Source: Chloroflexota bacterium
Lineage (GTDB): Bacteria; Chloroflexota; UBA11872
Assembly (NCBI GenBank): GCA_965208215.1
Contig: CBDBOH010000003.1
Location: 1,470,880 to 1,534,879 of the forward strand
Direction of reading: 5' to 3'
Length of the DNA stretch: 64,000 bases
Below are positions 12,101 to 30,244 of this stretch, piece after piece; the stretch's first letter is position 1; the number at the start of each line of letters is the position of its first letter. The translations under genes were made by a program, and so were the position numbers. The notes below the pieces were generated by a model that was not told where the DNA came from, ran no database searches, and saw nothing but the letters and a program-made list of their open reading frames with translations.

Positions 12101-12259
12101 TGCTGGGGATCCTTCCGACAGGGCGAAGACACGTCGCCCGACGACGTGCGGGTCACCACCATCAGCCTGGGTCGCGCACACACCTGTGGACTGGGCGCGG
12201 ACGGAACCGTCGCTTGCTGGGGGTCCGATGACGAGGGCCAGGTGTGGCCGCCGCGATGA
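6164..12259 (+). CDS. giant secreted RCC1-repeat (beta-propeller) protein, about 40 blades
   Basis: 2031-aa ORF with N-terminal signal peptide MMRTRLPVRAQWRSLPRALGPLVGAVCLGLVAVLQPVAQAQG. About 40 repeats of roughly 50 aa, F.AISSG..HTCGLR.DG.AVCWG....GQASPP.GERF. Two conserved Cys per repeat. Confidence 0.85.
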   Translation: MMRTRLPVRAQWRSLPRALGPLVGAVCLGLVAVLQPVAQAQGPSPGPALLPTAAVEPPRPDQRFVTVSSGNFHTCALQANGEVLCWGAEPPGETADVGPVGFGQALPPAGERFVAISSGGFHTCGLRDDGSAACWGADPGGQSEDLGQVGFGQTSPPNGEAFTAISSGGTHTCGLRGDGSVACWGNDESGQASPPDEERFTVITSGANHSCGVREDGTVVCWGPEPGPGPFGGWEAPPEAAFGSIDGAHGYTCGVPLEGPPFCWGSYSETPNLARYPPPDLWLIAVSGGGGHACGLRKDGMPVCWGDLPDSPPPGQRFASLSSGMGHTCGLRADDGTVACWGDDSYGQASPPEGARYLGSEPVPPDPYDPGAPLVALSSGGGHVCGITNEGFAWCAGNDHYGQASPPPGVKFASISSGSFHTCGIRLDGVAVCWGDDEDGESSPPAGERFVSISSSAGRTCALREDGTPVCWGRESAEETAAVAAEQFSAISAGWGHACALRADGTAVCWGSNWGGQATPPEDQRFTAISTGWDHTCALREDGAAVCWGRDQYGQASPPEHERFVDISTNTYHTCALREDGTPVCWGAADPWGDYGQASPRPGDRFVSVSSGDNFTCGLRADGTYGCWRFGPANLGFDLDTVGREGFRAVRDQALTAVSSGNRHTCAIGADGTLRCWGLNDYGQATPPAEGTFIAVSSGGRHTCALRDNGEAICWGDEADGRTQPPADDRFVAISSGWAHTCALREDGSAACWGRDHNGQAAPPADERFSAVSSGLTHTCALRQDGSAVCWGQDYDGQASAPEGARFAAISSGSDYTCALYEDGSPFCWGDPDDETSTPPYVERFVAISTGPDHACGLRADGTPVCWGERNAVAPPDVRFGAISIGAVHTCALRTDGRPICWGTGFQTPTESAKRSEFETVSVQSFVAISSGYGHVCALREDGSVVCWGSSGAGKTAAPQGETFSSLTSGGDHTCGLRADGVAVCWGYNEQGQASPPEDERFTALTSGSSHTCGLRSDGAAICWGSDDYGQASPPEGVQFTGLSAGERHTCGVRTDGLAICWGDDEHGKSTPSQAEKFVAVSSGEEHTCALRADGTPVCWGMAGSVTSPPHGVAFTALSSGHQHTCGLQADGTPVCWGSNAGGYETPGGRALAPHGEHLSAVSGGGDFTCGLRTDGTPVCWGGRFESGAPRYAPIAGGPFVAVSSGELHTCALRDDGTPVCWGDDTHGQASPPADARFVALSSGEQHTCGLLEDGGAVCWGSNRNGRSTPPVDEQFEFLSSGSSHSCALRADGSAACWGRNDQGQASPPEAESFVAIGSGGEHTCGLRDDGSTLCWGAEDRSSSWGKLWPPEHERFVALSVGPDHTCALRADGTLWCSTDFDQWSGVFEGERFVAISSARERLCGLRDDGSVACYGDFRIYLPVNQPFVSLSSGARHTCGLREDGAILCWGQNNRGQASLEKPYRTALSGERFTSITSGGRYACALRQDGSPVCWVAPDSRWSSPDDIPVPPDEQLTSISGGSGYVCGLRQDGSPVCWGRDWNGRAVPPEGEVFGATSAGSGHTCALRPDGTPVCWGRNDDGSGRHAGGALPPAGERFTTISVGAFHTCALREDGTPVCWGSNEDGRGNPVGQASPPSGERFTTITSASLHTCALREDGTAVCWGENHDGRSSPPDNESFIAIDSGAEHTCGIRADGSAVCWGQDWNGQASAPAGETFAAIGSGQDFSCALRQNGTATCWGEGYPRPPDVTPPYTPPAPPLPSPLPEFVAVTCGSFHTCALSVDGQAICWGGWSVNRPVWPPEGERFIALSGGWSHTCGLREDGTAVCWGVGVAVAESPPTGEKFTALSSGSSHTCGLRDDGTAVCWGFDDDGRAAPPAGERFTMLSSGGAHTCGLRADGTAVCWGRDDEGQASPPADERFTAIASGGDHTCGLRDDGTVRCWGDKSAPHATPPVGETFVAISSDDHRTCGLRSDGTVLCWGSFRQGEDTSPDDVRVTTISLGRAHTCGLGADGTVACWGSDDEGQVWPPR
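6330..12200 (+). repeat. nucleotide-level tandem repeats (about 150-nt period) encoding RCC1 blades
   Basis: Repeated codon blocks for HTCGLR/VCWG/GQASPP throughout the gene. They generate long GC-rich shadow ORFs on the opposite strand, e.g. 7517..9424 (-). Confidence 0.7.
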
Positions 12260-12450
12260 GATTGGAGAACGTACAGATGGTTGGCCGGACAGTCAGCCGC
12301 TTTGCCGCTCAGCGGGCGGGCCGGCGACTCTTGTCGTCTTGTTCGGCGCCAGCGACTCGACTGATTTCAGGCCTTCGTCGGTCGCGCGGCAGATCGAGGC
12401 CATTGCCCGGACGGCTGCAACCTGTCACCGCAAGACGTAGGTTCCAGGCT

Positions 12451-15400
12451 GTGGCGGCGCCATGGTTTTTCGTCGCGCTGGCCGCGCTGCTGGTGGCGCT
12501 CGGTGTGAGCCTCACGACCCGGCCGGTGCAGGCGCACAGCCGTACTCCGCCGTGCGAGAGTTTCGGTCTCCGCGGCGTTCACGTGATGAATGCCCGGAAC
12601 TCGGTGCAGTGGACGCCGGGCGGCTCCGAACTGCTTTTCATCCACCACGACCAGCTCTACCAGGCGACCGCAGACGGGACGCGCGTGCAAGGCACGTTTG
12701 AGGTTCCATACGAGGCCCACATCGAGTCGCGGTCGTATATCAAGGTCTACCTGTCCCACGCCGACGTCTCCCCTGACGGAAGCCGGGTGGCGTACTCGGT
12801 CTGCTGGGACTCCTTTACGTTCTGGGACAGCCCGCCAAGGGAACCGCCGGACGAGGAGTCTCGCGCGGTCGACGTTCCGATCACCACCGTGTTCTTCGAA
12901 GTCGCCGTCTGGGATGCGACCACCGACGAGGTGGACTACCTGGCCGTTGGCAGCGTGCCCGTGTGGTCGCCCGACGGCACCCGCATTGCGTTCTTGTCCG
13001 ACTACAACTACGCCGACCCGCCGGCCGACAGCCGGGCACGCGTCGAGGCCGACCCGGGGCTCTTCAGCATGGCCGCGGACGGCTCCGACATCCAACGCCT
13101 GGCGCCGGCGGACCATGGGGACGTCGGCCTTCCGCCCCGCTGGTCGCCGGACGGGCAACTCCTGGCCTTTGTGCGTGGCGTGGGTTCGGCGGAGCAGGCG
13201 GTGTACACGGTGGGCGCCGACGGCTCCAATCCCAGGCGGATCTCGGCGGCGGCCAGTCTTCCCTCCTGGTCCCCCGACGGCGAGCGGCTGGCGCTGGCGT
13301 TGCCGGACGGCGAAGAGGTGGCGTTGTACACCATCGCGGCGGACGGTTCGGACCCGCGGCGGCTGACGACGATCGATGGCTGGCAGAGCCAGGGGTGGAA
13401 TGAAGATTGGTACGCGGAAGATCCGTCGGTTGCCTGGATTGAGACGGTGGCCTGGTCGCCGGATGGATCGAAGATTCTTTTTACGTGTGGATGGGCGTCG
13501 GTCTGCGTGGTCGACGTGGATGGGAATCCCGTTGGAACATCGCCGGAGAACCTGGGGGAGCTACACGGACCTGTCTGGTCGCCCGACGGAGCGCGAATCG
13601 CGATTGGCATTGGCGCTGAAGTCGACCCCTATTCGCGGAGAGTGCCCGAGATTCTCTACACGATGAGGCCCGATGGCTCCGACCTACAGGTCCTTGTGAC
13701 CCTGGGCGTCGGGCTGGTGGCCGAGAGCGTCAGAGCGGCCGACCTTGCGACGCGGCGTGCGGCCTGCGACGGCGGCTACGTAGTCCCCGAGCCCGGTGCG
13801 AATCCCGGCCTGGTGGGCGACTGCCAGACGCTGATGAATCTGCGTGATTGGCTGTTCGGCGGCGTGGCCACGAACTGGAATGCCGGGACGCCGATCGACG
13901 AGTGGGTGGGGCTAACCGTCGAGGGCTCGCCGCGGCGGGTGACGGGGCTGAGGGTGGGAAGCGGCAGATACGGCGATGCCGTGACCGCGGGGATCATCCC
14001 GCCCGAAGTCGCCGACCTGCCCAAGCTGCGGACGCTCGAGCTTGCCGGCAACCAGATATCGGGGAACATCCCGCCGGAACTCGGTGAACTCGCCGAGTTG
14101 GAGACGCTGGATGTCGCCCACAACCAACTCTCGGGGTGGATTCCAGCAGAGCTCGGCGATCTGGGCTCGCTGCGGAGCCTGAACCTGGCCGGCAACCGGC
14201 TGTACGGGGAGATCCCACCGGAACTGGGCCAGCTGACGAGCCTTGAACTCCTGGATCTTGCCGGGAACGATCTGAGCGGCGAGATTCCAGCGGAGCTGGG
14301 CGACCTTGCCAGCCTGCAGCGGCTTCTCCTGCGGGAAAACGAGTTCGGCGGGAGAATTCCAGGGGCGTTGGGCCAACTTGCCGCCCTGGTGGCGCTGGAC
14401 CTCGCGGAGAGTGGCGTCACCGGAGGTATTCCCCCCGAGATCGGCGCTCTGGCCGGGCTGGAGACGCTGGATCTCTCCAACAATGAGCTGACGGGCGACA
14501 TTCCACCCGAACTGGGCGGGCTGCGAAACCTGACGGAGTTGAATCTCGGCCAGAACCACCTGACGGGCCTGATCCCCTGGGAACTGGGCTGGCTGACGAA
14601 GCTCACGAACCTGCAGTTCGGGGGCAACCAGCTCACCGGGCGAGTCCCAGTGGCCCTGGGGTCCATGTACGACCTGTGGTCGCTGGGGCTGTGGGGCAAT
14701 CAACTGGAGGAGTGTCTGCCGTTCCACTTGAACAGACGCGAGCCGCCGTACATCAACCCGCGCGAGTGGGCGACCTGCGAGCTGGGCTCGTACGCCTTCA
14801 ACATTCGGGACGACGCGTTGCTCGGCGCCAGCGTGGGCAGGGTGTATATCCCCGGCCGGCTGGCGGACACGCTCAGCTATGTGATCGCGGGAGGCAACGA
14901 GGGCGGGGCGTTTGCCATCGACGCCAGCAGCGGCCGGATTACCGTTGCCAGCGAACTGGATGCTTCAGCAGTCGATGCCTATGCGCTGACGGTCGCGGCG
15001 AGTGATGGAATCGGCGACCTGGTACACGTGGAGATCCGGGTCAATCCAGCGCCGTCGCCGCCGACCTGTGCCAGCGGAATCGCCGTGCCGAATCCGCAGG
15101 ACAATCCGGGGCTGGTGAACGACTGCCGGATCCTGCTCGAAGCGCGGGAAGTTCTGGTCGGCCGGACCTGGCTGAATTGGAGCGCCGAGGCGCCGATGGA
15201 GCAGTGGGAGGCGATCGAACTCGGCGGCACGCCGCGGCGCGTCCTGGCGCTGGAGATTCGAGGGCCCCACGGGGGCAGGCGCATCCCGCCCGAGCTTGGA
15301 GGCCTGAGCGCTCTGCAGCGACTGGTGCTCTTTAACAACCGATTGTGGGGCACCATACCGAGCGAGCTTGGCCAACTGAGCGAGTTGCGCGAACTCGATC

Positions 15401-15651
15401 TGTCGAATAACGCCTTCTCGGAAGCGATACCGCCGGAACTGGGTCAGCTTGCCAACCTGACGCACCTGAACCTCTTCGTCAATCGACTAACCGGGCAGGT
15501 TCCAGCGGAACTCGGACAGCTGACGAATCTGCGGGAATTGCACCTCGGCCTGAACCACTACCTGACCCAGTGCCTGCCGGCCGACCTGGCGGCGCGAGCG
15601 CGTGAGGGCGTCGTGTTGCCGGACTGGCCGACGTGTGACGAAGGTGGCTAG
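12451..15651 (+). CDS. secreted multidomain protein: PD40/TolB-like beta-propeller, LRR block (plant-type 24-aa LRRs), cadherin-like domain, second LRR block
   Basis: WSPDG repeats (VWSPDGTRIAF, RWSPDGQLLAF, SWSPDGERLAL, AWSPDGSKILF, VWSPDGARIAI). LRRs L..L..L.L..N.L.G.IP.ELG.L. Cadherin-like YVIAGGNEGGAFAIDASSGRITVASELDASAVDAYALTVAASDG. In-frame GTG 12451 gives signal peptide M-AAPWFFVALAALLVALGVSLTTRPVQAHS; start uncertain (listed ORF begins 12244). Confidence 0.75.
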   Translation: MAAPWFFVALAALLVALGVSLTTRPVQAHSRTPPCESFGLRGVHVMNARNSVQWTPGGSELLFIHHDQLYQATADGTRVQGTFEVPYEAHIESRSYIKVYLSHADVSPDGSRVAYSVCWDSFTFWDSPPREPPDEESRAVDVPITTVFFEVAVWDATTDEVDYLAVGSVPVWSPDGTRIAFLSDYNYADPPADSRARVEADPGLFSMAADGSDIQRLAPADHGDVGLPPRWSPDGQLLAFVRGVGSAEQAVYTVGADGSNPRRISAAASLPSWSPDGERLALALPDGEEVALYTIAADGSDPRRLTTIDGWQSQGWNEDWYAEDPSVAWIETVAWSPDGSKILFTCGWASVCVVDVDGNPVGTSPENLGELHGPVWSPDGARIAIGIGAEVDPYSRRVPEILYTMRPDGSDLQVLVTLGVGLVAESVRAADLATRRAACDGGYVVPEPGANPGLVGDCQTLMNLRDWLFGGVATNWNAGTPIDEWVGLTVEGSPRRVTGLRVGSGRYGDAVTAGIIPPEVADLPKLRTLELAGNQISGNIPPELGELAELETLDVAHNQLSGWIPAELGDLGSLRSLNLAGNRLYGEIPPELGQLTSLELLDLAGNDLSGEIPAELGDLASLQRLLLRENEFGGRIPGALGQLAALVALDLAESGVTGGIPPEIGALAGLETLDLSNNELTGDIPPELGGLRNLTELNLGQNHLTGLIPWELGWLTKLTNLQFGGNQLTGRVPVALGSMYDLWSLGLWGNQLEECLPFHLNRREPPYINPREWATCELGSYAFNIRDDALLGASVGRVYIPGRLADTLSYVIAGGNEGGAFAIDASSGRITVASELDASAVDAYALTVAASDGIGDLVHVEIRVNPAPSPPTCASGIAVPNPQDNPGLVNDCRILLEAREVLVGRTWLNWSAEAPMEQWEAIELGGTPRRVLALEIRGPHGGRRIPPELGGLSALQRLVLFNNRLWGTIPSELGQLSELRELDLSNNAFSEAIPPELGQLANLTHLNLFVNRLTGQVPAELGQLTNLRELHLGLNHYLTQCLPADLAARAREGVVLPDWPTCDEGG

Positions 15652-15806
15652 GCCGTGGACGCGCCGCCAAACTCAACAACGCTAAGCGACCTGCTGAGAG
15701 GGTCGGGCCAAGTATTGGTTGGGCATGGCTGCGCTTCGCCCAATGGCTCGCTGGGAGCGTCGTCGCTGGCGGACGGGCCGTGTCCGGCGGTCGCGGAAGG
15801 CCTGGC

Positions 15807-18800
15807 ATGGCCAGACTGATTGGGCTGGGCCTCGCGGTCGGACTCCTGGTGGCGGTCACCGTGCTGCCGGTGCGGGCGCTCGAGTGCGGTGCGGAGGTCG
15901 GCGTTCCGTTGGACGACGGCTGCGTGTTCACAATCACTGGCAGCGACACCCCGGACCCGGCCGATGGGTTTGCGGTATCCAATGCGGTTGACGTTCCGCT
16001 GTGGGATTTCGTTCGGGCGAGGGATCTGCAGGCGATCGGGTATCCCATCAGTCAGCGGTGGATCGAGGGTCCGTTCACGCTGCAGGCGTTCCAAAAGGTC
16101 ATCCTGCAATGGGACCCGGGTCGCCGGCAGATGAACTACTACAACACGCTGGATGCGCTGGCGAATCGGTATCCGCAGGTGGCGCTGCCGAACGTGCCGA
16201 TCCACGAGGTGCTGGCGGCGGACTTTGGAGCCGATTTCGCCACGGTCACGCAAAACCACCTGGCGATCCTGGATCGAAACTCGAAGATACGGGCGCGGTT
16301 TCTGGCCGAGCCTGACTGGCTGAATCTATACGGGCTCCCGATTCGGTACGAGGCTCGGGAGGTCGACGGGAATCCGGAGGGCCTGCAAATCCTGCGGACG
16401 CAACGGGCGGTATTTGTGATTTGGAACGTCCCGGCGCCTGGGACGACGGTCGGGCAGGTGCTGCTGCAGAACGTGCCGGACAAAGTGAAGCAACTGACCA
16501 ACGTGATCATTCCGGACGCGGCCAAGGCGCCGGTTCGACCCGAAGCCGTCGAAGACCTCCCACGCTTTACATTGACGGTGCAGCCGACGTCGCTGGCTAG
16601 CAACGGGCCGACGAATCTAGAGGCTTGTGCCGGCGGCGCCGTGGTCCCAAACCCTGGATTGCAGCCTGAATTGGTACGGGACTGCCTGATTCTCTTGCAG
16701 ATCCGCGATGCGTTGGTGGCGAGTGGGTCGCTGAACTGGGCTACAGATCGGCCGATCAACGAGTGGCAAGGGATCGTCCTGGGTGGCTCGCCGACTAGGG
16801 TCCGGACGTTATCGATAAACGGTGGTGAGCGCGGCGGGACGATCCCGGCCGAGATCGGCGGACTGACCGGGCTGCATACGCTTCAAATTCGAGGCAACGC
16901 ATCGATTGGGGCGATTCCACCCGAGCTTGGACATCTGTTGAGTCTGGGAGCACTCGATTTCTCGAACAACCAGCTCTCCGGGACGATACCCCCGCTGATC
17001 GGACGCCTGGCCAATCTGCAGCACCTCAACCTGGGTCACAACCGACTATCAGGGTCGATCCCGCAGGAGTTGGGACAACTGGGTTCCTTGCAGGTTCTGC
17101 ACCTTTACAACAACCAGCTTACGGGTGAGATTCCGATACAGCTGGGTCGGCTCGCTGCCCTGACATGGCTTGGGCTCGGCAGGAACGATCTGGCGGGCGG
17201 GATTCCGGCGGAGCTTGGGCAACTGAGCCGCCTGCAAACGCTCAAGCTCGATAGCAATCCTCTTGGCGGCACCATCCCGATCGCGCTTACTCGGCTGGCC
17301 GACCTGACGGAGCTCGATCTGAGAGGAACCAGGCTGACTGGTGGAATCCCGTCTGAGGTGGGCAAATTGGCAAGTCTTCGTACGCTTGACCTCGGCGAAA
17401 ATCAGTTGACCGGCCCGATTCCGGCGACCCTCGGCCAGCTGTCAAATCTGCAGATACTGCAACTTCAGTACAACCCACTGAATGCCGAGATTCCACGCGA
17501 GCTAGGCCGTCTGCGCAGGTTGGAGAAGCTGGTGTTTACCGGAAGCCAGCTGACCGGGCAGATTCCAGATGAACTGGGACAACTAGAGAATCTGAAAGAG
17601 CTCAGTCTCGGGGTCAACAAGCTAACGGGTGCGATTCCGACATCGCTCGGCGGCCTGACAGCGCTCGAGACACTTCGTGCCGGCAACAATCAGTTGTCGG
17701 GACCGATTCCTGTCGCGATCGGCGGACTACAGAATCTCAGGGAACTAGCGCTTGGCACCAATCGGCTTAGCGGCCCAATACCTTCTGGACTTGCAGGGCT
17801 CTCACAGTTACAGCAACTTGATCTCAGCGGAAACAGCCTCACCGGTTTGATTCCAACGGAGCTCAGCCGCCTGGCGGCGTTGACGGGTATTCACCTTGGC
17901 GGCAATGGGCTGACTGGTTCGATTCCGGCGTCGCTTGGCGAGCTGGCAAAGCTGCGAGAGCTGAGCCTGGGTGGTAATCAGCTTACGGGTTCGATTCCGC
18001 CAACGCTTGGTTATCTGGCGAGGCTCGAGTCGCTGGGTCTCGGAAGCAATGCACTGTCCGGCGCGATCCCGGGAGATCTAGGGCGACTTGCCAACTTGCG
18101 CGAATTAGACCTTACGTTCAACCAGTTGAGTGGCCCAATACCGGCGGCCCTTGGCCAGCTTTCGGGTCTTGAATGGCTAGGGCTCAGAGGCAATCGGTTG
18201 TCGGGCTGCCTGCCGGCGGACTTGGCTAGCGTGCGAACGCGAGATATTGGTCCTCCAGAGCATCCCTTCTGCCACGCCCAGGCAACGCCTGATACGGATC
18301 TTGGGCAAGGCCCGACGCTTCAACCCAGCGTAGATGCAGCCGACAATGGTGCTTGCACGAACGGTCGGGTCGTGCCGCAGCCGCAGGCGAATCCGGGCCT
18401 GGTTCGTGACTGCAAGATCTTGTTCGCGGCTCGCGACACGCTGGCCGGGGGCGCCGATCTGAACTGGGGTGCTGATCGCACCATTGCCAAGTGGGACGGC
18501 GTGGTTCTGGGCGGCTCGCCGCCACGGGTTCACGAGCTTGCGCTGTCAACCGTGGGACTTTCAGGCTCGATTCCAGTTGTCATTGGAGAACTCAGGGCAT
18601 TGACGCGGCTGGATCTGAGCCAGAACCGCATCACGGGTCCGATTCCGGCTCAGCTTGGACAGTTAGTGAGACTTACGGAACTCCACCTCAATTCCAACGA
18701 GCTATCCGGCCACATTCCGGTAGAACTGACAGGACTGTCCGAGCTTCAACTTCTGTACCTCTTCGGCAACTCGCTGACCGGTCGGATTCCAACTGAGTTG

Positions 18801-19574
18801 AGCCAACTGTCAAAATTGAAATTCATGTACTTGGGCTTCAACAGTCTAAGCGGTCCAATCCCCATGGAATTGGGCCATTTATCGAACCTGGTAGAACTCT
18901 CCTTGCGAGTCAACCCATTGGAAGGATCGATCCCGGCGTCGCTTGGCAATCTGCACAACCTTGAGGCTCTGCACCTGTCAGAAAGCGGGCTATCAGGTAC
19001 TATACCTGCCGAACTTGGTCAGCTTCATAAGCTTCGCGAGATGTGGCTAGGAGAAAACCATTTGTCTGGATCAATACCAGCTGAATTAGGACGTCTTGCC
19101 AGTCTATATCACCTGTATCTGGATGGGAATCAACTTGAAGGAACGATTCCTATGGAGTTGGGCAATCTCTCCAGCTTACGGGAACTGCATCTGCTCAGTA
19201 ATCATATCTCAGGCGAGATTCCGGCGGCACTTGGCCAACTCGCTAGCTTGGAGAGTCTCAATCTGGGCTCCAATCAGTTGACGGGATCCATTCCGGTGAG
19301 TCTCGGCCAGCTGTCAAACCTAGACAGCCTCCGCCTTCAGTACAACCGGTTGTCCGGGTCCATTCCAGTCTCGCTGGGACAATTGTCCAACCTCACGCTC
19401 CTCAACCTTGAGCACAACAACCTGTCGGGGACGATTCCTGGAGAAGTTGGACGCCTGAGTGGCCTGTGGATAGTTCACCTGGGTGGTAACCAGCTGTCCG
19501 GGTGCATTCCCGCCCATTGGCGAGACCTCCCGCACAATGATCTGCATACTCTCGGCCTGTCGTATTGCTCGTGA
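15807..19574 (+). CDS. giant secreted leucine-rich-repeat protein (about 56 plant-type LRRs in two capped blocks)
   Basis: Signal peptide MARLIGLGLAVGLLVAVTVLPVRA. N-terminal domain of about 250 aa, then two blocks of 24-aa LRRs (L..L..L.L..N.LSG.IP..LG.L..L). Each block is preceded by a Cys-containing cap C..G.VVPNP..NPGLV.DC..LL..RD.L.G...LNW....PI..W.GV.LGGSP.RV..L. Confidence 0.8.
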   Translation: MARLIGLGLAVGLLVAVTVLPVRALECGAEVGVPLDDGCVFTITGSDTPDPADGFAVSNAVDVPLWDFVRARDLQAIGYPISQRWIEGPFTLQAFQKVILQWDPGRRQMNYYNTLDALANRYPQVALPNVPIHEVLAADFGADFATVTQNHLAILDRNSKIRARFLAEPDWLNLYGLPIRYEAREVDGNPEGLQILRTQRAVFVIWNVPAPGTTVGQVLLQNVPDKVKQLTNVIIPDAAKAPVRPEAVEDLPRFTLTVQPTSLASNGPTNLEACAGGAVVPNPGLQPELVRDCLILLQIRDALVASGSLNWATDRPINEWQGIVLGGSPTRVRTLSINGGERGGTIPAEIGGLTGLHTLQIRGNASIGAIPPELGHLLSLGALDFSNNQLSGTIPPLIGRLANLQHLNLGHNRLSGSIPQELGQLGSLQVLHLYNNQLTGEIPIQLGRLAALTWLGLGRNDLAGGIPAELGQLSRLQTLKLDSNPLGGTIPIALTRLADLTELDLRGTRLTGGIPSEVGKLASLRTLDLGENQLTGPIPATLGQLSNLQILQLQYNPLNAEIPRELGRLRRLEKLVFTGSQLTGQIPDELGQLENLKELSLGVNKLTGAIPTSLGGLTALETLRAGNNQLSGPIPVAIGGLQNLRELALGTNRLSGPIPSGLAGLSQLQQLDLSGNSLTGLIPTELSRLAALTGIHLGGNGLTGSIPASLGELAKLRELSLGGNQLTGSIPPTLGYLARLESLGLGSNALSGAIPGDLGRLANLRELDLTFNQLSGPIPAALGQLSGLEWLGLRGNRLSGCLPADLASVRTRDIGPPEHPFCHAQATPDTDLGQGPTLQPSVDAADNGACTNGRVVPQPQANPGLVRDCKILFAARDTLAGGADLNWGADRTIAKWDGVVLGGSPPRVHELALSTVGLSGSIPVVIGELRALTRLDLSQNRITGPIPAQLGQLVRLTELHLNSNELSGHIPVELTGLSELQLLYLFGNSLTGRIPTELSQLSKLKFMYLGFNSLSGPIPMELGHLSNLVELSLRVNPLEGSIPASLGNLHNLEALHLSESGLSGTIPAELGQLHKLREMWLGENHLSGSIPAELGRLASLYHLYLDGNQLEGTIPMELGNLSSLRELHLLSNHISGEIPAALGQLASLESLNLGSNQLTGSIPVSLGQLSNLDSLRLQYNRLSGSIPVSLGQLSNLTLLNLEHNNLSGTIPGEVGRLSGLWIVHLGGNQLSGCIPAHWRDLPHNDLHTLGLSYCS

Positions 19575-22236: not shown

Positions 22237-23052
22237 CTAGCCGATTGTCGATCCGGCTGGAAGCAGGTGAGCGAGCCGCGGCCTCAGGTTGTCCGGCGCC
22301 TCGTCGTAAACCTCGCGCGGCAGGTCCTCGACGAACGAGTCGATCCCGTCGCCGACGATCACCTGGCGTTCCACGTGGCCGCGGCGGGTCGGGTTGAGGT
22401 TCAGCCACCAGGGGGCGAAGCGGACCACCACGGTGACGCGATCCTGATCGGTCGTGTTGGGCGAGACCGCATGCCAGAGGCGGCTGTCCACGATGGCCAC
22501 CGAGCCGGCCGTGCCCAGGAGGCGGGCTTCGTCGTCGCGCGGGGCCATCCAGTCGCCGAGCGGGCTGCCGGGACGCGGGTGGTCCTGCTGGCGGTGGCTG
22601 CCGGGCACCACGTACGTCGCGCCGTTCTCGGGCGTGAAATCGGTCAACATCCAGAACGTGGTGAGGTGCATGGGCACGTCCGGATAGGGCGCGGGGATAT
22701 GGGCCAGGTTGCGCTGGTTGTAGGGAAAGTCGGCGTGCCAGATGTCGCGGTCGGTTCCGGGGCCCGTGACGTAGCCGGTCACGTACGAGATGCGCCAGTG
22801 GGGTCCGAGGACGCCCTGGGTGACGGTGTCGACTTGCTCGTCGCCCAGGTGGGGCAGCAGGGCCTGATCGAAGCGCAGCAGGTTAGAGACCCCGTAGCGG
22901 GGGGCGGGGGAACGCGAGTTTTGGATGATGGACGTCGACACCTTCTCGCGAACGTCGCTGAGGGCCGGTTCCGAGATGATGTCCGGGATTACGCACCAGC
23001 CGCGTGTCCGCAGGTCGTCCACATGTGATTCAAGCCCGTTCGATGCGCTCAT
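22237..23052 (-). CDS. phytanoyl-CoA dioxygenase (PhyH) family Fe(II)/2-oxoglutarate oxygenase
   Basis: 271-aa ORF: RGWCVIPDIISEPALSDV...HADFPYNQ...GSVAIVDSRLWHAVSPN. Confidence 0.7.
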   Translation of the reverse strand: MSASNGLESHVDDLRTRGWCVIPDIISEPALSDVREKVSTSIIQNSRSPAPRYGVSNLLRFDQALLPHLGDEQVDTVTQGVLGPHWRISYVTGYVTGPGTDRDIWHADFPYNQRNLAHIPAPYPDVPMHLTTFWMLTDFTPENGATYVVPGSHRQQDHPRPGSPLGDWMAPRDDEARLLGTAGSVAIVDSRLWHAVSPNTTDQDRVTVVVRFAPWWLNLNPTRRGHVERQVIVGDGIDSFVEDLPREVYDEAPDNLRPRLAHLLPAGSTIG

Positions 23053-23225
23053 CGGCGTCTCCGCCGGCGGACCTGTCGGCCCGGCCGTTCGTGCGTTCGC
23101 CTGCTCCGGGCAGGCAACGACTGCAACTTACGGAATGCTAGCAACGCTGGCGGGTAGTGGTCTCCAGCGAATCGACGGACCGCGACCAAGCAGCGATGGG
23201 CGCCGCAGCCCTGACCTCGTCGGTG

Positions 23226-23411
23226 TCAACAGCCGTCGTTGCCGCAGTGGGCCTTGGGATCCTTGTAGGGGAAGGGGTCGTCGCGAGTTCCCGCGGTCGA
23301 ACCGTCGTCCCCGCAGGCCGCGCCAAGACCGACGGCCATGACCGCGAACGCGCCGAGCAGGGCTCCGCTAAACCGTCGGCGGCTAAGCGTCCGCCGGAAT
23401 CTCCTGTCCAC
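23226..23411 (-). CDS. small secreted Cys-containing peptide, paralog C (GTG start)
   Basis: VDRRFRRTLSRRRFSGALLGAFAVMAVGLGAACGDDGSTAGTRDDPFPYKDPKAHCGNDGC aligns residue for residue with paralogs A and B. SD AGGAGACGG 6 nt upstream; listed ORF 23226..23684 is an in-frame upstream extension. Confidence 0.5.
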   Translation of the reverse strand: MDRRFRRTLSRRRFSGALLGAFAVMAVGLGAACGDDGSTAGTRDDPFPYKDPKAHCGNDGC

Positions 23412-23442
23412 TGCGCCGTCTCCTGGTGCTTCGGCCGTAGCC

Positions 23443-23471
23443 ATTACAACTAGAGCGGACGGTCCTGGCAA
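23443..23471 (-). promoter_or_regulatory. sigma70-like promoter of peptide paralog C: TTGCCA-N17-TGTAAT
   Basis: -10 TGTAAT lies 31 nt upstream of the GTG; -35 TTGCCA has exact 17-bp spacing. The same architecture is conserved upstream of all three paralogs. Confidence 0.4.
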
Positions 23472-23577
23472 ACGGGGCGCCGCGAGGCCGCCAATGCAGA
23501 GTGATTCGTCCGCGCCCGAATCGGCAGCAGACGTTCCGGCCCCAGGCCTCGAGGTCTTTCCAGCGACGGGAGTCGCG

Positions 23578-23769
23578 TCAGCAGCTAGTTCCCAGGTTGC
23601 CGCAGCGGGATCTTGGGTCCTTGACGGGGAAGGGATCGTCGCGGGTACCCGCGGTCGAACCGTCGTCCCCGCAGGCCGCGCCAAGGCCGACGGCCGTGAG
23701 CGTCAGCGCGCCGAACAGTACTCCAGCAAAGCGTCGACGGGTGAGCGGTCGTCGGGACCGATAGTCCAT
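23578..23769 (-). CDS. small secreted Cys-containing peptide, paralog B
   Basis: MDYRSRRPLTRRRFAGVLFGALTLTAVGLGAACGDDGSTAGTRDDPFPVKDPRSRCGNLGTSC; SD AGGAGTCGG. Confidence 0.5.
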   Translation of the reverse strand: MDYRSRRPLTRRRFAGVLFGALTLTAVGLGAACGDDGSTAGTRDDPFPVKDPRSRCGNLGTSC

Positions 23770-23801
23770 TGCGCCGACTCCTGACTCTTCGGGCCGTAAC
23801 C

Positions 23802-23830
23802 ATTACAACGCGTGCGGATGGCTGTGGCAA
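23802..23830 (-). promoter_or_regulatory. sigma70-like promoter of peptide paralog B: TTGCCA-N17-TGTAAT
   Basis: Same spacing and sequence as the paralog C promoter. Confidence 0.4.
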
Positions 23831-23879
23831 ACAGGGCGGCGCCACACGCTCGACTTTCAGGAGCCCGTTGGGCTCGGAA

Positions 23880-24068
23880 TTAGCAGCGCACGTTGCCGCA
23901 GCGGGCCTTGGGGTCCTTGTAGGGGAACGGGTCGTCGCGGGTGCCGGCGGGCCGACCGGAGTCATCGCCGCAAGCCGGGCCAAGTCCCACGGCCACAACT
24001 GTGAGCGCGCCGAGCAACGCGCTGCCAAATCGTCGCCTGGTGAAAGGCCGCCGGGGCTTTCCGTCCAT
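23880..24068 (-). CDS. small secreted Cys-containing peptide, paralog A
   Basis: MDGKPRRPFTRRRFGSALLGALTVVAVGLGPACGDDSGRPAGTRDDPFPYKDPKARCGNVRC; SD GGGAGACGG. Confidence 0.5.
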   Translation of the reverse strand: MDGKPRRPFTRRRFGSALLGALTVVAVGLGPACGDDSGRPAGTRDDPFPYKDPKARCGNVRC

Positions 24069-24100
24069 CGTGCCGTCTCCCGATATTTCGGGCAGCGATC

Positions 24101-24129
24101 ATTAGAACGACTGTTCCGGAATTAGGCAA
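24101..24129 (-). promoter_or_regulatory. sigma70-like promoter of peptide paralog A: TTGCCT-N17-TCTAAT
   Basis: Same architecture as the other two, with a conserved leader element GCCCGAA before the SD. Confidence 0.35.
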
Positions 24130-24197
24130 GCACGCGGGCCTCACGGGATCGCGGCCAAACGGTTTGCAGGGACTCTCAGCTGGCGCTCAGTCGCGGC

Positions 24198-25178
24198 TCA
24201 CCACTGGAACACCGTGCCCATGAGCTGCGACGAGTCATCCCGCAACGTGGCGTAGATGCGGGGCGCGTCGTTCGCCGGGACGACGTCCTGGATCAGCGGC
24301 GCGATCTGGACCAAGCCCCGGCCCACGAGACGGCACAGGTTCCGCAGGTCATCCCGGTCGAAGTGGCTGTTCTGCTTGATGGTGATCTCCTGGGCCTGGC
24401 CGGTCCTGAAGGTGTAGTTCACTTCCCAGCGACCCGCGACCAGGATCACGCGGCCCTGCAGGCGGACGCACGTGATCAGCTTGTCCTCCGTGCCCGGGAC
24501 GCCCGCAAAGTCGATCACGGCGTCAAAGGCGCCCTCGCCGATATGCCGATCCCAGCCATCGCCGGAGACGTCCACCACCGACTCGGCGGCGCCGATCGAG
24601 CGGGCTAGCTCCAGCCGACGTCCGGCGACGTCGCCGATGGTGACGCGCGCGCCCATGACCGTGGCGATCTGCGCCGCCATCTGCCCGATGCAGCCGGCCC
24701 CGCCGACGATCAGCACTCGCTCGCCCATCCTCAACTCGGCATTGCGGCAACTGCGCATCGCCACCCCGCCCATGCCGAACAAGGCGGCGTGCAGAGGATC
24801 GATCTCCGAGGGCAGCTTGAGGACCAGGTCGTCCTCCGCGATGGTGACGAACTCCACGTGACCGGCCGGGCTCCGCCGCGTTCCACTGTGGGCGCCGATG
24901 AACACCAGGTCGCCAAGGCTCAGGTCCTCGACCTCGGGTCCGACGGCGACTACCTCGCCGACGCTCTGGTAGCCCTCGTTCGAGGGCAGCTCGTGGTCCG
25001 GGCGCGAGTAGTTGCCGCCCAGCATGTTGTTGCGCTCGGTGCCGTTGGTGATTCCGCTGTAGATGTTCCGGGCCTTGATCTCGTTGGCCCGTGGCTCGTC
25101 CGTGTACTCGGGCCAGTCATGCACCAGCCGCTTGCCCCGGCGTCCGTCGGCTTCGAGCACGGTTACCAGCGCACGCAT
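24198..25178 (-). CDS. zinc-dependent alcohol dehydrogenase / MDR-family oxidoreductase
   Basis: MRALVTV...GGAGCIGQMAAQIA...; internal ATG 25178 with GGAGGG SD (listed ORF extends to 25316). Confidence 0.75.
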   Translation of the reverse strand: MRALVTVLEADGRRGKRLVHDWPEYTDEPRANEIKARNIYSGITNGTERNNMLGGNYSRPDHELPSNEGYQSVGEVVAVGPEVEDLSLGDLVFIGAHSGTRRSPAGHVEFVTIAEDDLVLKLPSEIDPLHAALFGMGGVAMRSCRNAELRMGERVLIVGGAGCIGQMAAQIATVMGARVTIGDVAGRRLELARSIGAAESVVDVSGDGWDRHIGEGAFDAVIDFAGVPGTEDKLITCVRLQGRVILVAGRWEVNYTFRTGQAQEITIKQNSHFDRDDLRNLCRLVGRGLVQIAPLIQDVVPANDAPRIYATLRDDSSQLMGTVFQW

Positions 25179-25897: not shown

Positions 25898-26728
25898 CTA
25901 ACCCTTCGCCGCCTTCAGCGCCTCGACCTGCTCGCGGATGCCGACTTCGGTGGGCAGGCGTTCGATGCTCGAGGCGCCAAAGAACCCGGCCACGCCTTCG
26001 GTGTTCGCCAGGACATGGCGCACGTCGCCGGGATCCGCGATCGGCCCGCCATGGCACAGCACTACCGAGTCCGGTTTCTCGGCCACGGCGGCGTCGTGAA
26101 TCGCCTGCACGCTCGCCACCGCGTCGTCCAGCGTCAGCGCCGTCGTGGCCCCGATCGACCCCTTGGTCGTCAGCCCCATGTGCGGCACCAACACGTCCGC
26201 GCCCGCCCGGCTCATCGCCACCGCCTGGTCGGGATCGAACACGTAGGGACAGGTCAGCATGTCCAGCTCATTGGCCTGGCGGATCAGGTCCACCTCCAGG
26301 CCGAAGCCCATGTTGGTCTCTTCCAGGCCCTGGCGAAAGATGCCGTCGATCAGGCCCACCGTCGGGAAATTCTGCACGCCGTCGAAGCCCATGGCCTTCA
26401 GCTGCTTCAGAAACGTGGGCATCAGCCGGAACGGGTCGGTCCCGCACACTCCCGCCAGCACCGGCGTGTCCTGCACCACCGGCAGCACCTCGGATGCCAT
26501 GTCCACCACGATGGCGTTGGCGTCGCCGAAGGGCATCATCCCCGAAAGCGACCCGCGGCCCGCCATCCGGAAGCGGCCCGAGTTGTAAATGATGATCAGG
26601 TCCGCACCGCCCTGTTCGGCGAACTTGGCCGTGATGCCGGTGCCGGCGCCGCAGCCGATGATCGGCTCACCGGCGTCCAGCGTGGCCCGCAAGCGCCGCA
26701 GCGCCTCAGCGCGTGGGATGTACGGCAT
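25898..26728 (-). CDS. TIM-barrel PEP-hydrolase-like protein (homolog of Tm-1 C-terminal domain)
   Basis: [35 protein letters not shown]...VLCHGGPI. Confidence 0.65.
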
Positions 26729-26788
26729 GCGCGTGGTCCTTTCGTTCGGTTGAGGAGTCGCTCAGCAGCACGGCGTGTCGCCGCATCG

Positions 26789-27994
26789 TCAGCCCAGATA
26801 CTCCAGCAGCTTGTCCGTCACGGCGTCGGCAAAGGCCTCGTCGTTGACGGCGTGGTCCAGCTCATACACGGGAATGTCGTCGCGCACGTGTTGCTTGATG
26901 GCGTCGAACAACGCCTGGTCGGCCTCCGGCCAGTGGAACTCTTCGCCCGGCGCGCCCAGCAGCGACAGGCCCTGCAACGGCAGGAAGATCGCCGTTGGCG
27001 CCGACGACCCATTGGCCTTCTCGGCCAGGATGCGTCCCAACTCGGCGTTTTCCTCGGGGTTCGTGCGCATCAGGCTCACGTTGGGATTCCAGTAGTGGAA
27101 GCGGCGGCCCTCGAACTTGTCCGGAATCGTCTCCGGCCCCCAGAAATTCACCATGTCCAGGCAGCCCGGCGCGATCACCTGTGGGACTCCCTGCGCCGCC
27201 GCGGCCTCCAGCCGGTTGGGACCGGCCCCCATCACGCCGCCCACCAGTTCGTCGGCCCACTCGGTGGTCGTCACGTCCAGCACGCCGCTCGCGAACCCGC
27301 CGGCCACCACGTCTTCCATCGTTCGACCGCCCGTGCCGGTGGCGTGAAACACCAGCACCTCGTACCCCAGCGCGTCCAGCCGCTCGCGGCAGCGCTCCAC
27401 CGCCGGCGTCGTGTTGCCGAACATCGAGGCCGCGATCAGCGGCTTGTCCTCGATCTCGGGCGCGGCCGTCTCCGCCATCCCCACCACCGCGCCCACCGCG
27501 TTGGCGTAGATTCGCGCGCTGATCCGGTTCACCCCCGCCACGTCCACGATCGAGGGCACCATCACCACGTCCTTGGTGTCCACGTAGCCGCTGGTGTCGC
27601 CGGAGGCCACCGTGCTCACCATCACCTTGGGCACCCCGACGGGCAGGGCGCGCATGGCCGCGGTGCCCACCGCCGTTCCGGCGCTGCCGCCCATGCCCAG
27701 CACGCCGTCGATCCGGCCTTCGGCATGCAGCCGGCCCACGATCTCGGCCCCGCCCGTGGCCATGACGCCGATGGCCGTCCCGCGGTCGCCCTGCGCCCGC
27801 AGCTCGTCCAGGCCGGTTCCACCGGCTTCTGCGACCTGCGACGCCGGGATATCGGGTTCGAAGCCCGGCTCGCTGATCACGCCGCTATCGATCACCAGCG
27901 CCCGGTGACCCCGCCGCTCGATTTCGCGGCGCACGAAGGCGAACTCGCCGCCCTTCGTATCCAGCGCGCCGATCACGGCAATCGTTTTCGCCAT
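26789..27994 (-). CDS. UPF0261-family protein (homolog of Tm-1 N-terminal domain)
   Basis: MAKTIAVIGALDTKGGEFAFVRREIERRGH...; adjacent to its usual TIM-barrel partner. Confidence 0.65.
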   Translation of the reverse strand: MAKTIAVIGALDTKGGEFAFVRREIERRGHRALVIDSGVISEPGFEPDIPASQVAEAGGTGLDELRAQGDRGTAIGVMATGGAEIVGRLHAEGRIDGVLGMGGSAGTAVGTAAMRALPVGVPKVMVSTVASGDTSGYVDTKDVVMVPSIVDVAGVNRISARIYANAVGAVVGMAETAAPEIEDKPLIAASMFGNTTPAVERCRERLDALGYEVLVFHATGTGGRTMEDVVAGGFASGVLDVTTTEWADELVGGVMGAGPNRLEAAAAQGVPQVIAPGCLDMVNFWGPETIPDKFEGRRFHYWNPNVSLMRTNPEENAELGRILAEKANGSSAPTAIFLPLQGLSLLGAPGEEFHWPEADQALFDAIKQHVRDDIPVYELDHAVNDEAFADAVTDKLLEYLG

Positions 27995-28079: not shown

Positions 28080-28706
28080 TCACGGATTGGGCGCCAGGTC
28101 GTCCACCACCAGCCGCGCCGCATTGAGTGCCACGGCGGTCAGCATGTCGTTGCGCAGGGGCCAGTCGGGAGGCAGCTCGGCGAACACGGCGTATGTTCCC
28201 GGCCTGGCCGGCTGCACGATCAACGCGTGGCCAAGCCAGACTGCTGGGACTGGATGCCACGCATTCCGTTCAAGCCGAAAGACGCTGGCACCCCCGGCGT
28301 CCGGCTGGACAAACGTCAGTCGAGCGGCGGGCGAGAGCTCAATGTCGCGACCGCCGCCGTCGCGTGCCGTGACGGTGAACGCTGGCGAGATACGCAGCAG
28401 GTTCGGTCCAGCGCCCGGCAGCGCCACATAGGTGGGTTGAGCCAGCAGCGTGACGTCGGCGCCCTCCGCCAGCACACGGGAATCTTCTTCAAGCGTTGCG
28501 TTCGAGAGTCGCAGCGCCAGCGGCGCCGGAGCCTCGCTGGACTTGGCGGCTGAGTCTGCACGGGGTGACTTCGACTCCGCTTCACGCAGCCGAACGTCCG
28601 GGGCCGTTTGAGCCCTCGCGGGCGCGGGGCGCGAGGACCAGGTGGCCGCAGCCGCCAGCAACACGATCAGTGCTGCCGCCATGCCTGCGATCAGCCAGCG
28701 GCTCAT
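28080..28706 (-). CDS. hypothetical membrane-anchored/secreted protein
   Basis: N-terminal TM/signal MSRWLIAGMAAALIVLLAAAATW; stop overlaps the next gene's start. Confidence 0.4.
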   Translation of the reverse strand: MSRWLIAGMAAALIVLLAAAATWSSRPAPARAQTAPDVRLREAESKSPRADSAAKSSEAPAPLALRLSNATLEEDSRVLAEGADVTLLAQPTYVALPGAGPNLLRISPAFTVTARDGGGRDIELSPAARLTFVQPDAGGASVFRLERNAWHPVPAVWLGHALIVQPARPGTYAVFAELPPDWPLRNDMLTAVALNAARLVVDDLAPNP

Positions 28707-30244
28707 GGCGGACTAAGTGTCCGAACGGTTGCCAGCACGTCGGCCGACCCGTCGCCCGTCACGTCGATGTCCACGGCCCACAGCGGCCGATCCGGCGGCC
28801 AAAACCCGGTGGCCAGCAAGGTGCTGGGCGACGCCTCCGTCGGAATCCCGGCCTGCCGACGCAGCGTCTCTCGGTACCAGGCGAACTGCCAGAGCCGGCG
28901 GTCGACAATCGTTACGTCGGTCCGTCCGCCCGGTGCATAGCGCGCATGCCAGAGGGGGAACGTCGCCCGGTCGTCCTCGGTCAGGAGCACGCTGTTGGGG
29001 TCGGCCTGGGCCAGCAGCGCGTGCGCGAACGCCCCGGCGTGGGTGGCGTCGCGCATGGAGACTGCGGGGGCCAGGTCGATTCCGCGGATCAGGGCCGTGG
29101 TCACCAGGACTGCCGCGAGCGTCCCGGCGACGAGGCGTCGAGCGCCGCCTCCTGCCAGCGATGCCAGTCGTCCGATCTCGCTGACGCTGAGCGCGGACCA
29201 GAGTGCCACCACGGCGAGGGCCGGCAGGATAAGAACCTCGTCGTCCCGCGAGGTATATAGGACGCCGACGATTAGGGCGCTAATCGCGATCCATCCCGTC
29301 GCCAGCGCGGCACACCCGTGCCGCCGGGTCAGGGACTCGCCGCCAAGCGCCAGCAGCGGCAGGAGCACCCACGTCAGCTGGCGCACGGGCTCGCCCAGCA
29401 GCCAGGCCGCCTTGGATGCCGCTGCGCCTATGTGTCCCGCTCCCAGGCGGGACTGGTAGATCTCGCCGCTCACGACCGACCAGAACCGCTCGGGTGTCGA
29501 CGGCGCGCCCCAATTGATCGGCGGATCCAGCGCCGCCGCGATGGGCAGATACGTGTAAACCATGCAGCCCACCGCGAAGCTTCCGGCGACCAGGCCGCCC
29601 CGGCGGACTGCCGCACGCCTCGTGCCGCCCTCGGACAGGAGAATCGCTGCCAGTGCCGGCAGGGCCAGCGCCACCGTCAGGTGGGCGCCCACCCCGATCC
29701 CCAGCAACATTCCCGACGCGGACGCCCAACGCCATCCGTCGCGACCTGCGTCCAGGCAGCCCCGCGCGCGAACCCCCGCGTACAGCGCGCTCCACAGGAA
29801 CAGGCTGGCCAGCGCGTAAACCTCCGTCACGATCGCGTTCGACCAGACCAGCGGCGCCAGCCCATACAGAGCCAGCACGGCCGATCCGCCAGCCGCCTCC
29901 GGCAGCGGCATCGCCGCGCCCGCGCTCGGACGTAATCGGGCGGCCAGCAGGCCCAGAGGTATCAGCGACCCGGCCGCCGCCAGCGCGGTCAGGACATTCA
30001 GCCGCAGCGCCAGGTCGCCCAGCGGGATTGCCCGCACCGCCAATCCCAGCAGCATCAGCGTCGGGTAGCCGGTGGGGTGCGGCACGCCGCCCACCGCCAC
30101 GGCGGCGGCCAGGTCGCCGCTGTCGATGCCCGTGCCCGACCACACGACCCCCGGCGCCAGCGTCAGCAGATAGGCAACCAGCACGCCCCCGGCCGCGCTC
30201 AGGCCAACCACGGCGCCTGCGAACCGATCGGCGATACCCGGCAT
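28703..30244 (-). CDS. DUF2723 (TMEM260-like) polytopic membrane protein, putative glycosyltransferase
   Basis: GVVWSGTGIDSGDLAAAVAVGGVPHPTGYPTLMLLG matches the DUF2723 N-terminal signature; many TM segments. Confidence 0.55.
   Translation of the reverse strand: MPGIADRFAGAVVGLSAAGGVLVAYLLTLAPGVVWSGTGIDSGDLAAAVAVGGVPHPTGYPTLMLLGLAVRAIPLGDLALRLNVLTALAAAGSLIPLGLLAARLRPSAGAAMPLPEAAGGSAVLALYGLAPLVWSNAIVTEVYALASLFLWSALYAGVRARGCLDAGRDGWRWASASGMLLGIGVGAHLTVALALPALAAILLSEGGTRRAAVRRGGLVAGSFAVGCMVYTYLPIAAALDPPINWGAPSTPERFWSVVSGEIYQSRLGAGHIGAAASKAAWLLGEPVRQLTWVLLPLLALGGESLTRRHGCAALATGWIAISALIVGVLYTSRDDEVLILPALAVVALWSALSVSEIGRLASLAGGGARRLVAGTLAAVLVTTALIRGIDLAPAVSMRDATHAGAFAHALLAQADPNSVLLTEDDRATFPLWHARYAPGGRTDVTIVDRRLWQFAWYRETLRRQAGIPTEASPSTLLATGFWPPDRPLWAVDIDVTGDGSADVLATVRTLSPP

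Follow-up and report, generated by a model that had tools for sequence, protein, structure and literature searches.

Three very short open reading frames (ORFs) stand in tandem on the minus strand of a 64-kb stretch of DNA from a Chloroflexota bacterium (contig CBDBOH010000003.1, positions 1,470,880 to 1,534,879; the whole stretch is called the window hereafter), and they raise the question of whether ORFs of this size are genes and, if so, what kind of product they make and where it acts. They are named here copies A, B and C (Table 1). The reading that we favor, which taken as a whole we give about an even chance of being correct, is that they are tandem paralogues from a family of micro-lipoproteins that are exported through the twin-arginine translocation (Tat) or general secretory (Sec) pathway and show a short linear motif at the cell surface.

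The array, its family and the selection acting on it

The positions and strand of the three ORFs in the preliminary description agreed with the reverse-strand sequence of 23100-24300 and with the ORF list, and the residue-for-residue paralogy that it proposed was borne out: protein identity to copy A is 74% for copy B and 72% for copy C, and the unambiguous residue-for-residue alignment contains 38 invariant columns, with M-D, RRRF, AVGLG.AC-GDD, AGTRDDPFP.KDP and CGN..C common to all copies. At the DNA level the array consists of three direct repeats, 72-79% identical over 131-197 nucleotides (nt) and spaced by 358 and 299 nt, and every insertion or deletion between the paralogues is in frame. 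The GC content at third codon positions (GC3) of the three ORFs is 0.73-0.81; the window measures 67.2% GC, not the ~70% previously given. Long overlapping ORFs that the ORF list places on both strands of the array region are the usual artefacts of high-GC DNA. A protein identical to copy B is present on two further contigs.

No named family had been recognized for these peptides, and none emerged from hidden Markov model (HMM) scans with Pfam and NCBIfam, in which nothing rose above cut-off for the three peptides and three of their relatives at default thresholds or at E ≤ 10; a literature search on the motif and on 'lipo-invert', the name of a model discussed below, returned nothing relevant. 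A word-indexed search of 5.8 billion proteins found 48 relatives, all of 42-93 amino acids (aa) and all unnamed or labelled 'hypothetical', and an exhaustive search of 1.84 billion cluster representatives with a profile gave only 11 proteins at E ≤ 0.001. Because all of these profile matches are only 53-108 aa long, the motif is not the start of a larger domain; longer relatives in which it opens a domain were looked for among the same representatives, and none was found. A scan of species genomes recovered 39 loci, all in metagenome-assembled genomes (MAGs) of Chloroflexota, with several loci per genome. Judged by these searches, the peptides form a genuine, previously undescribed family of probable bacterial lipoproteins without a sequence relative outside it, restricted to one clade of marine Chloroflexota, most of which appears to live with sponges. 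Many of the host MAGs appear to be sponge bins, as their isolate names (RHO, COS, SB06..) resemble those of sponge-metagenome bins as in PMC8163846.

Four subfamilies were distinguished. Subfamily I comprises arrays of one to three copies as in the window, whose type-specific tails, ..AHCGNDGC (A), ..VKDPRSRCGNLGTSC (B) and ..ARCGNV[RTS]C (C), are preserved across genomes. Subfamilies II and III are single genes with the tails ..YQDPRSRNTRL and ..YEKSRSGFGWG, respectively. Subfamily IV is a 54-aa lipobox mini-ORF with the mature part CGGDDSRYGGEKSGSFQPRSGISWGN, located directly upstream of subfamily III at L006:7758-7922 (+), at L043:9683-9847 (+) and at every subfamily III gene examined; it is without RDDPFP, and its likeness to subfamily III consists only of the common SRSG.[SG]WG tail. 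In distant members from other marine metagenomes the motif is G-T-R-[DE]-[DN]-P-[FY]-P-Y, and the tail behind it is basic, for example SKDRVDRLRTRM.

Selection was measured on orthologues gathered from 60 related loci as Nei-Gojobori ratios of nonsynonymous to synonymous substitution (dN/dS), with the 22 codons that precede the lipobox Cys (signal) treated apart from the mature part. The mature part gave 0.11 for type A, 0.009 for type B, 0.25 for type C, 0.07 for subfamily II and 0.008 for subfamily III, compared with 0.26, 0.51, 0.27, 0.30 and 0.66 for the respective signals. The low ratios therefore show selection on the amino-acid sequence, strongest on the short C-terminal peptide, and on this evidence the three ORFs are almost certainly real, translated genes. 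With mature-part ratios near 0.01, the family is among the most strongly constrained sequences of these genomes.

Signal, lipobox and expression signals

Each precursor begins with a basic region containing [ST]-R-R-R-F, followed by an uncharged stretch of 16-17 residues that ends in G-L-G-[AP]-A-C, the Cys being residue 33 in all three copies. The mature part starts as C-G-D-D, three to four residues of Gly, Ser, Thr, Arg or Pro, and A-G-T-R-D-D-P-F-P-[YV], and continues as K-D-P-[KR]-[AS]-[HR]-C-G-N-x(2-4)-C, with the C-terminal Cys pair spaced C-x4-C or C-x6-C. Its length is 29, 31 and 30 aa in copies A, B and C. Both the twin-arginine-like signal ending in a lipobox and the three-Cys mature peptide of about 29 aa with a DPFP core, as first described, are thus recognizable in every copy.

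Among 36 diverse relatives the only invariant elements are M1, the A-C-G that ends the hydrophobic stretch, and G..R-D-D-P-F-P. The A-C-G is kept in every subfamily, the lone exception (L041) looking decayed, and in subfamilies II and III the lipobox Cys is the sole Cys. Because II and III retain this Cys alone, the three of subfamily I are read as one anchoring Cys plus a pair, and a lipobox is a better fit than a signal-peptidase-I site because the Cys is invariant, stands alone in two subfamilies and is joined by a pair in the other. Two lipobox patterns, one PROSITE-type (PS00013) and one Gram-positive (G+LPP-type), were applied to the copies: A and B pass both, and C passes the Gram-positive pattern only, since it has Pro at lipobox position -2. 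Every copy has T/S-R-R-R-F as its Tat-like motif; among 58 family members, 33 carry [ST]RRxF and 44 carry RRx[FLVIM]. Twin arginines with LAAC lipoboxes are also found on larger exported proteins of the same genomes, which suggests that the pathway is in use. Export of the precursors, cleavage between Ala and Cys, and lipidation are on these grounds probable.

An AlphaFold2 model built from the family alignment has one helix over residues 3-30 and a mature part without structure (mean predicted local distance difference test score, pLDDT, 61), and would fit a disordered tethered peptide. The mature part, likewise predicted to be disordered, is charged and rich in Pro and Gly, with its acidic part towards the N terminus and its basic part towards the C terminus. 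A slight model similarity was to NF058595 of NCBIfam ('lipo-invert putative C-terminal anchoring domain'), which copies A (23226-23411) and B (23578-23769) and members of subfamilies III and IV (relative P0041 and L006:7758-7919) matched weakly and below threshold (15.7-16.5 bits, E ~0.01, vs a 37-bit cut-off). The similarity covers 35 of the 113 profile positions, over the Arg-rich, hydrophobic and lipobox stretch, and probably reflects generic signal and lipobox composition.

Each copy had also been credited with its own near-consensus promoter. The boxes stand: TTGCCW-N17-TSTAAT occurs three times in the 64-kb window, against 0.09 occurrences expected from shuffles, and all three lie 38-39 nt upstream of the array start codons, one per gene. 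The epithet is generous: each hexamer agrees with the sigma-70 consensus at five of six positions and the spacer measures exactly 17 nt, and the second position of the '-10' hexamer holds G or C where A is canonical. The GCCCGAA reported in the leader reads GCCGAA in copy A, and the reported AGGAG Shine-Dalgarno sequence is found in copies A and B, copy C having GGGAG. Array and leader are both conserved in related genomes, where arrays of one to three copies occur. In an alignment of 38 distinct subfamily I upstream regions, orthologous and paralogous, conservation peaks at [TC]TTGC[CG] and, 17 nt on, at CGTT[CG]TA[AG]TGG, with a variable spacer between the two boxes; further peaks are GAA and, ahead of the start codon, GGAG and GGCGC, and the Shine-Dalgarno sequence and start codon are themselves conserved. 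This pattern is the footprint expected of a -35 element, a -10 element and a ribosome-binding site and supports one promoter per copy.

Table 1. Coordinates of the array, its putative expression signals and the flanking genes within the 64-kb window
Feature	Position	Strand	Description
Copy C (first transcribed)	23880..24068	-	ATG start; 62-aa precursor MDGKPRRPFTRRRF...GLGPAC/GDDSGRPAGTRDDPFPYKDPKARCGNVRC
Copy C, signal part	23973..24068	-	
Copy C, mature part	23883..23972	-	30 aa
Copy B	23578..23769	-	ATG start; 63-aa precursor
Copy B, mature part	23581..23673	-	31 aa, CGDDGSTAGTRDDPFPVKDPRSRCGNLGTSC
Copy A	23226..23411	-	GTG start; 61-aa precursor
Copy A, mature part	23229..23315	-	29 aa, CGDDGSTAGTRDDPFPYKDPKAHCGNDGC
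Promoter-like box, copy C	24101..24129	-	TTGCCT-N17-TCTAAT
Promoter-like box, copy B	23802..23830	-	TTGCCA-N17-TGTAAT
Promoter-like box, copy A	23443..23471	-	TTGCCA-N17-TGTAAT
Shine-Dalgarno, copy C	24077..24081	-	GGGAG, 8 nt before ATG
Shine-Dalgarno, copy B	23778..23782	-	AGGAG, 8 nt before ATG
Shine-Dalgarno, copy A	23420..23424	-	AGGAG, 8 nt before GTG
BchC-like medium-chain dehydrogenase (ADH)	24198..25178	-	Upstream neighbour; without signal peptide
PhyH-family Fe/2-oxoglutarate (Fe/2OG) dioxygenase	22237..23052	-	Downstream neighbour; syntenic in close relatives only

A possible tethered motif and the readings that compete with it

In the mechanism that we propose, each gene would be transcribed from its own sigma-70-like promoter, as the conserved boxes suggest, and translated from a canonical Shine-Dalgarno sequence and start codon; that translation takes place is shown by the selection on the protein sequence. 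The resulting precursor of 61-63 aa, as read from its sequence, has [ST]RRRF in its n-region, 16-17 uncharged residues as its h-region, and A-C-G as its lipobox. It would be exported, probably by Tat, lipidated at Cys33 by Lgt and cut before Cys33 by signal peptidase II, leaving an intrinsically disordered, lipid-tethered peptide of 29-31 aa. G-T-R-D-D-P-F-P-[YV] would then be presented at the external membrane surface, a disulfide between the two C-terminal Cys may form a small loop that differs from paralogue to paralogue, and the membrane-tethered short linear motif would dock a conserved extracytoplasmic partner, with the tails of the subfamilies setting specificity. Such a function as tethered ligand or adaptor is put forward tentatively, as somewhat less probable than its opposite, because a disordered peptide is extremely conserved, its tails are paralogue-specific and no maturation or receptor genes accompany it.

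Several observations weigh against this picture. At lipobox position -2, Pro is found in copy C and in many orthologues and breaks the PROSITE-type pattern, and position -3 is occupied by Gly instead of Leu, Val or Ile. The Tat models PF10518 (TAT_signal) and TIGR01409 did not match the three copies even at E ≤ 10, a weak negative given that these models are short and insensitive, and their best score, 14.8 bits vs a cut-off of 22.7 bits, fell on relative P0040 and not on the copies in the window. A generic sigma-70 promoter scan called none of the three array boxes, because position 2 of the '-10' hexamer is not the canonical A, and no intrinsic terminator was detected by scan after the array genes. 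The occurrence of a BchC-like dehydrogenase gene beside the peptides in three synteny types hints at a cytoplasmic link that the proposed mechanism leaves unexplained.

By architecture, the closest known systems appear to be the entericidin ecnAB pair and the Tat-dependent lipoproteins of Actinobacteria and haloarchaea. The EcnA/EcnB locus of enterobacteria (PF08085) encodes tandem paralogous very small lipoproteins with mature parts of about 20-30 aa, and resembles the array in having tandem genes for tiny lipoproteins with their own expression signals. Entericidins, however, are amphipathic helical, membrane-active toxin/antidote peptides of diderm bacteria, whereas the array peptides are charged, Pro/Gly-rich and predicted to be disordered and have a twin-arginine n-region. 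With the Tat-dependent lipoproteins the peptides share a twin-arginine n-region and a lipobox followed by a Gly/Asp/Ser-rich linker; those proteins, however, are full-size and folded, for example substrate-binding proteins and enzymes, and a mature part of 29-31 aa without a fold offers no folded or cofactor-containing cargo of the kind that usually calls for Tat. Braun's lipoprotein Lpp and LptM are also tiny lipid-anchored polypeptides, and their function is contact with another envelope component. They belong to the diderm outer membrane and have no homology to the array peptides: neither Entericidin (PF08085) nor Lpp (PF04728) gave a Pfam match at E ≤ 10, and the NCBIfam LptM model reached 10 bits on a relative only.

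If lipid-anchored peptides of 29-31 aa are indeed formed, they would be among the smallest lipoproteins known, and a Tat-type signal would here precede a cargo without a fold, which is rare. Proteins this small are skipped by gene callers or labelled 'hypothetical', and here they make up a lineage-restricted family without a described relative. The producers are uncultivated and apparently dominant sponge symbionts, which makes a conserved surface epitope a candidate for a part in organising the envelope or in contacts with the host; the interest of the family would rise considerably if a role in the host or a modification step in the cytoplasm were true.

A more specific proposal is that the peptides are symbiosis factors, that is, surface lipopeptides whose invariant RDDPFPY epitope is read by, or interferes with, receptors of the sponge host; it may be a 'symbiont badge' or mimic a short linear motif of the host. 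Innate immune receptors of animals classically recognize bacterial lipopeptides. An array of one to three copies together with three further subfamilies per genome, in a clade of apparently sponge-derived MAGs, fits this proposal, as do giant RCC1/LRR repeat proteins encoded ~3.7 kb from the array. In a variant, the recurrently adjacent BchC-like dehydrogenase may modify the peptides in the cytoplasm, hence their export by Tat. We nevertheless regard a role in symbiosis as unlikely. The peptides were also inspected by eye for the eukaryotic motif look-alikes PPxY, PxxP, RGD and DP[FW]; DPF alone is present, and an AP-2-type cytosolic target is topologically implausible.

Instead of remaining tethered, the mature peptides could be freed by proteolysis after export through the signal and lipoprotein route and act in the manner of quorum-sensing signals, each paralogue being a distinct one. 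Bacillus Phr peptides and the enterococcal pheromones, which derive from lipoprotein precursors, are precedents, and the mature parts are small, probably exported and disordered, with several paralogues that have distinct conserved tails and a putative promoter each. We consider such a release unlikely: no RRNPP regulator, histidine kinase or oligopeptide permease adjoins any subfamily, the sequences are near-invariant between species (dN/dS ~0.01) and not diversified into pherotypes, and the invariant Cys argues for retention in the membrane.

The preliminary description likened the layout to arrays of bacteriocins or other ribosomally synthesized and post-translationally modified peptides (RiPPs), a likeness that did not hold up. 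The N-terminal part would in that case be a leader, and the core would be modified before export by the neighbouring PhyH enzyme, the BchC-like dehydrogenase or both. As in arrays of the NHLP, SCIFF, MftA and lanthipeptide kinds, short Cys-containing ORFs stand in tandem with oxidoreductase genes nearby, here 164 nt (PhyH) and 256 nt (ADH) from the array, and the Tat pathway accepts substrates whose modification or folding took place in the cytoplasm. Moreover, in the distant genome OY282448 both family members have an adjacent ADH gene and a PhyH gene within ~3 kb, and custom HMMs run over ~0.9 Mb of redundant sequence around the collected loci found the ADH, PhyH and TMEM260-like families almost only beside peptide genes, so that the ADH adjacency is unlikely to be pure chance. 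Unlike RiPP leaders, however, the N-terminal part has the architecture of a signal peptide with a lipobox, and an invariant Cys right after an A-x-A-like site is more in keeping with a lipobox than with cleavage of a leader. No RiPP-precursor model matched in NCBIfam scanned to E = 10 (NHLP, SCIFF and mycofactocin models included), and within ~10 kb there is no gene for a radical-SAM protein, YcaO, lanthipeptide synthetase, C39 peptidase/ABC exporter or immunity protein. Conservation is also the reverse of that in typical RiPP families, with dN/dS of 0.009-0.25 in the core vs 0.26-0.66 in the leader.

Linkage to the enzymes also speaks against RiPP maturation, since it fails in distant family members, which have no ADH, PhyH or TMEM260 gene among their neighbours. 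The BchC-like dehydrogenase stands beside family members in three arrangements, that of the window and those of L005:6866-7933 (-) and L004:6456-7460 (+); the latter two enzymes are 56% identical paralogues within one genome, and the window-type ADH is 23-26% identical to both. Subfamily II is always divergent from a BchC-like dehydrogenase different from that of the window, also in OY282448, where a subfamily-I-like gene follows a 56%-identical paralogue of the subfamily II dehydrogenase. As two of the three types are such paralogues and distant members are without ADH, its linkage is taken as no more than a hint; the BchC-like dehydrogenase is a possible functional partner of the peptides. 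PhyH linkage was rejected as a general feature of the family, as the three PhyH proteins are mutually only 24-28% identical and no PhyH gene accompanies either subfamily II in the window clade or any distant member; its adjacency is probably coincidental. Altogether we find RiPP precursors improbable.

The hydrophobic segment could instead remain uncleaved, giving bitopic micro-membrane proteins with a permanent N-in/C-out anchor and a 29-aa tail that serves as accessory subunit of a membrane complex. The single helix of the AlphaFold2 model, the atypical lipobox of copy C (Pro at -2, Gly at -3) and the remaining constraint on the signal part (dN/dS 0.26-0.5) are in line with such an anchor, which we judge improbable as well, given that A-C-G ends the hydrophobic stretch invariantly in every subfamily, that II and III are without any other Cys, and that the hydrophobic sequence itself varies freely.

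That the ORFs are spurious, that they are decayed remnants of the N-terminal part of larger lipoproteins, or that they belong to a repeat or RNA element without coding function can be almost completely discounted: they are very short, a window of 67% GC is rich in long chance ORFs, database annotation never goes beyond 'hypothetical', and decayed copies occur now and then (L012 and L041, for example), but the strong purifying selection at the protein level effectively refutes spurious ORFs, start codon and Shine-Dalgarno sequence are conserved, the copies differ in frame, the motif is in no longer protein among the 1.84 billion representatives, and no Rfam family reached its gathering threshold in the array region or the whole 64-kb window, in which no tRNA gene was found either.

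Gene neighbourhood and variation among genomes

The array always lies between the BchC-like dehydrogenase and PhyH genes, within a block whose synteny extends to all close relatives; at such short evolutionary distances, shared gene order is a poor guide to function. In the direction of the peptides, the array is preceded by genes for Glyco_hydro_cc, a TMEM260-like glycosyltransferase, a hypothetical protein, UPF0261, PEP_hydrolase, ThuA and ADH, and followed by PhyH, a hypothetical protein, an endonuclease/exonuclease/phosphatase-family protein and SDR. The UPF0261 (Tm-1-like) and PEP_hydrolase-like pair, followed by ThuA, lies upstream of ADH in the window (25898-27994 (-)), and is 90-99% identical across relatives, above the rest of the block.

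The TMEM260-like gene, whose product resembles protein O-mannosyltransferases, is located at 28703-30244 (-), 4.7 kb from the array. One or two such genes adjoin subfamilies III and IV, for example at L007:5722-7251 (-) and also at L030, L035 and L047, and they are sometimes duplicated or in pseudogene-like fragments (L006, L009, L047). O-glycosylation of the Ser/Thr-rich linker is conceivable; linkage as a general feature was rejected, as TMEM260-like genes occur near subfamilies I and III/IV only.

On the plus strand, the three giant repeat proteins are encoded at 6164-19574. One, of 2031 aa, contains 36 RCC1 repeats, another, of 1135 aa, has PD40, LRR and cadherin domains, and the third, of 1264 aa, is almost wholly LRR. 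Giant eukaryote-like repeat proteins of this kind are typical of sponge symbionts (PMC8163846).

The number and composition of array copies differ between genomes, which indicates that copies are being gained and lost: the order is C-B-A in the window and C'-B-C in L023 (9357-10189), two copies are present in many genomes, and only one in L026 and L028 (~10001-10189). In the sponge-type clade, complete chromosomes of 3.4-3.6 Mb (OY764080.1, OZ242271.1 and OZ244802.1, each with more than one locus recovered) hold up to three loci, and every complete genome has separate single-Cys subfamilies away from the array. A decayed type A copy in L012 (~10001-10189) ends in CGNDGR, with the last Cys gone, and in the decayed subfamily III copy of L041 (~9935-10159) the lipobox Cys is replaced by Arg. 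Near the distant members there are further, apparently unrelated Tat-like/lipobox mini-ORFs of 72-87 aa, some with a TPY[AT]FP motif (L049:2049-2270 and 2343-2561; L051:5596-5832 and 8267-8530), and marine Chloroflexota may encode a wider repertoire of micro-lipoproteins.

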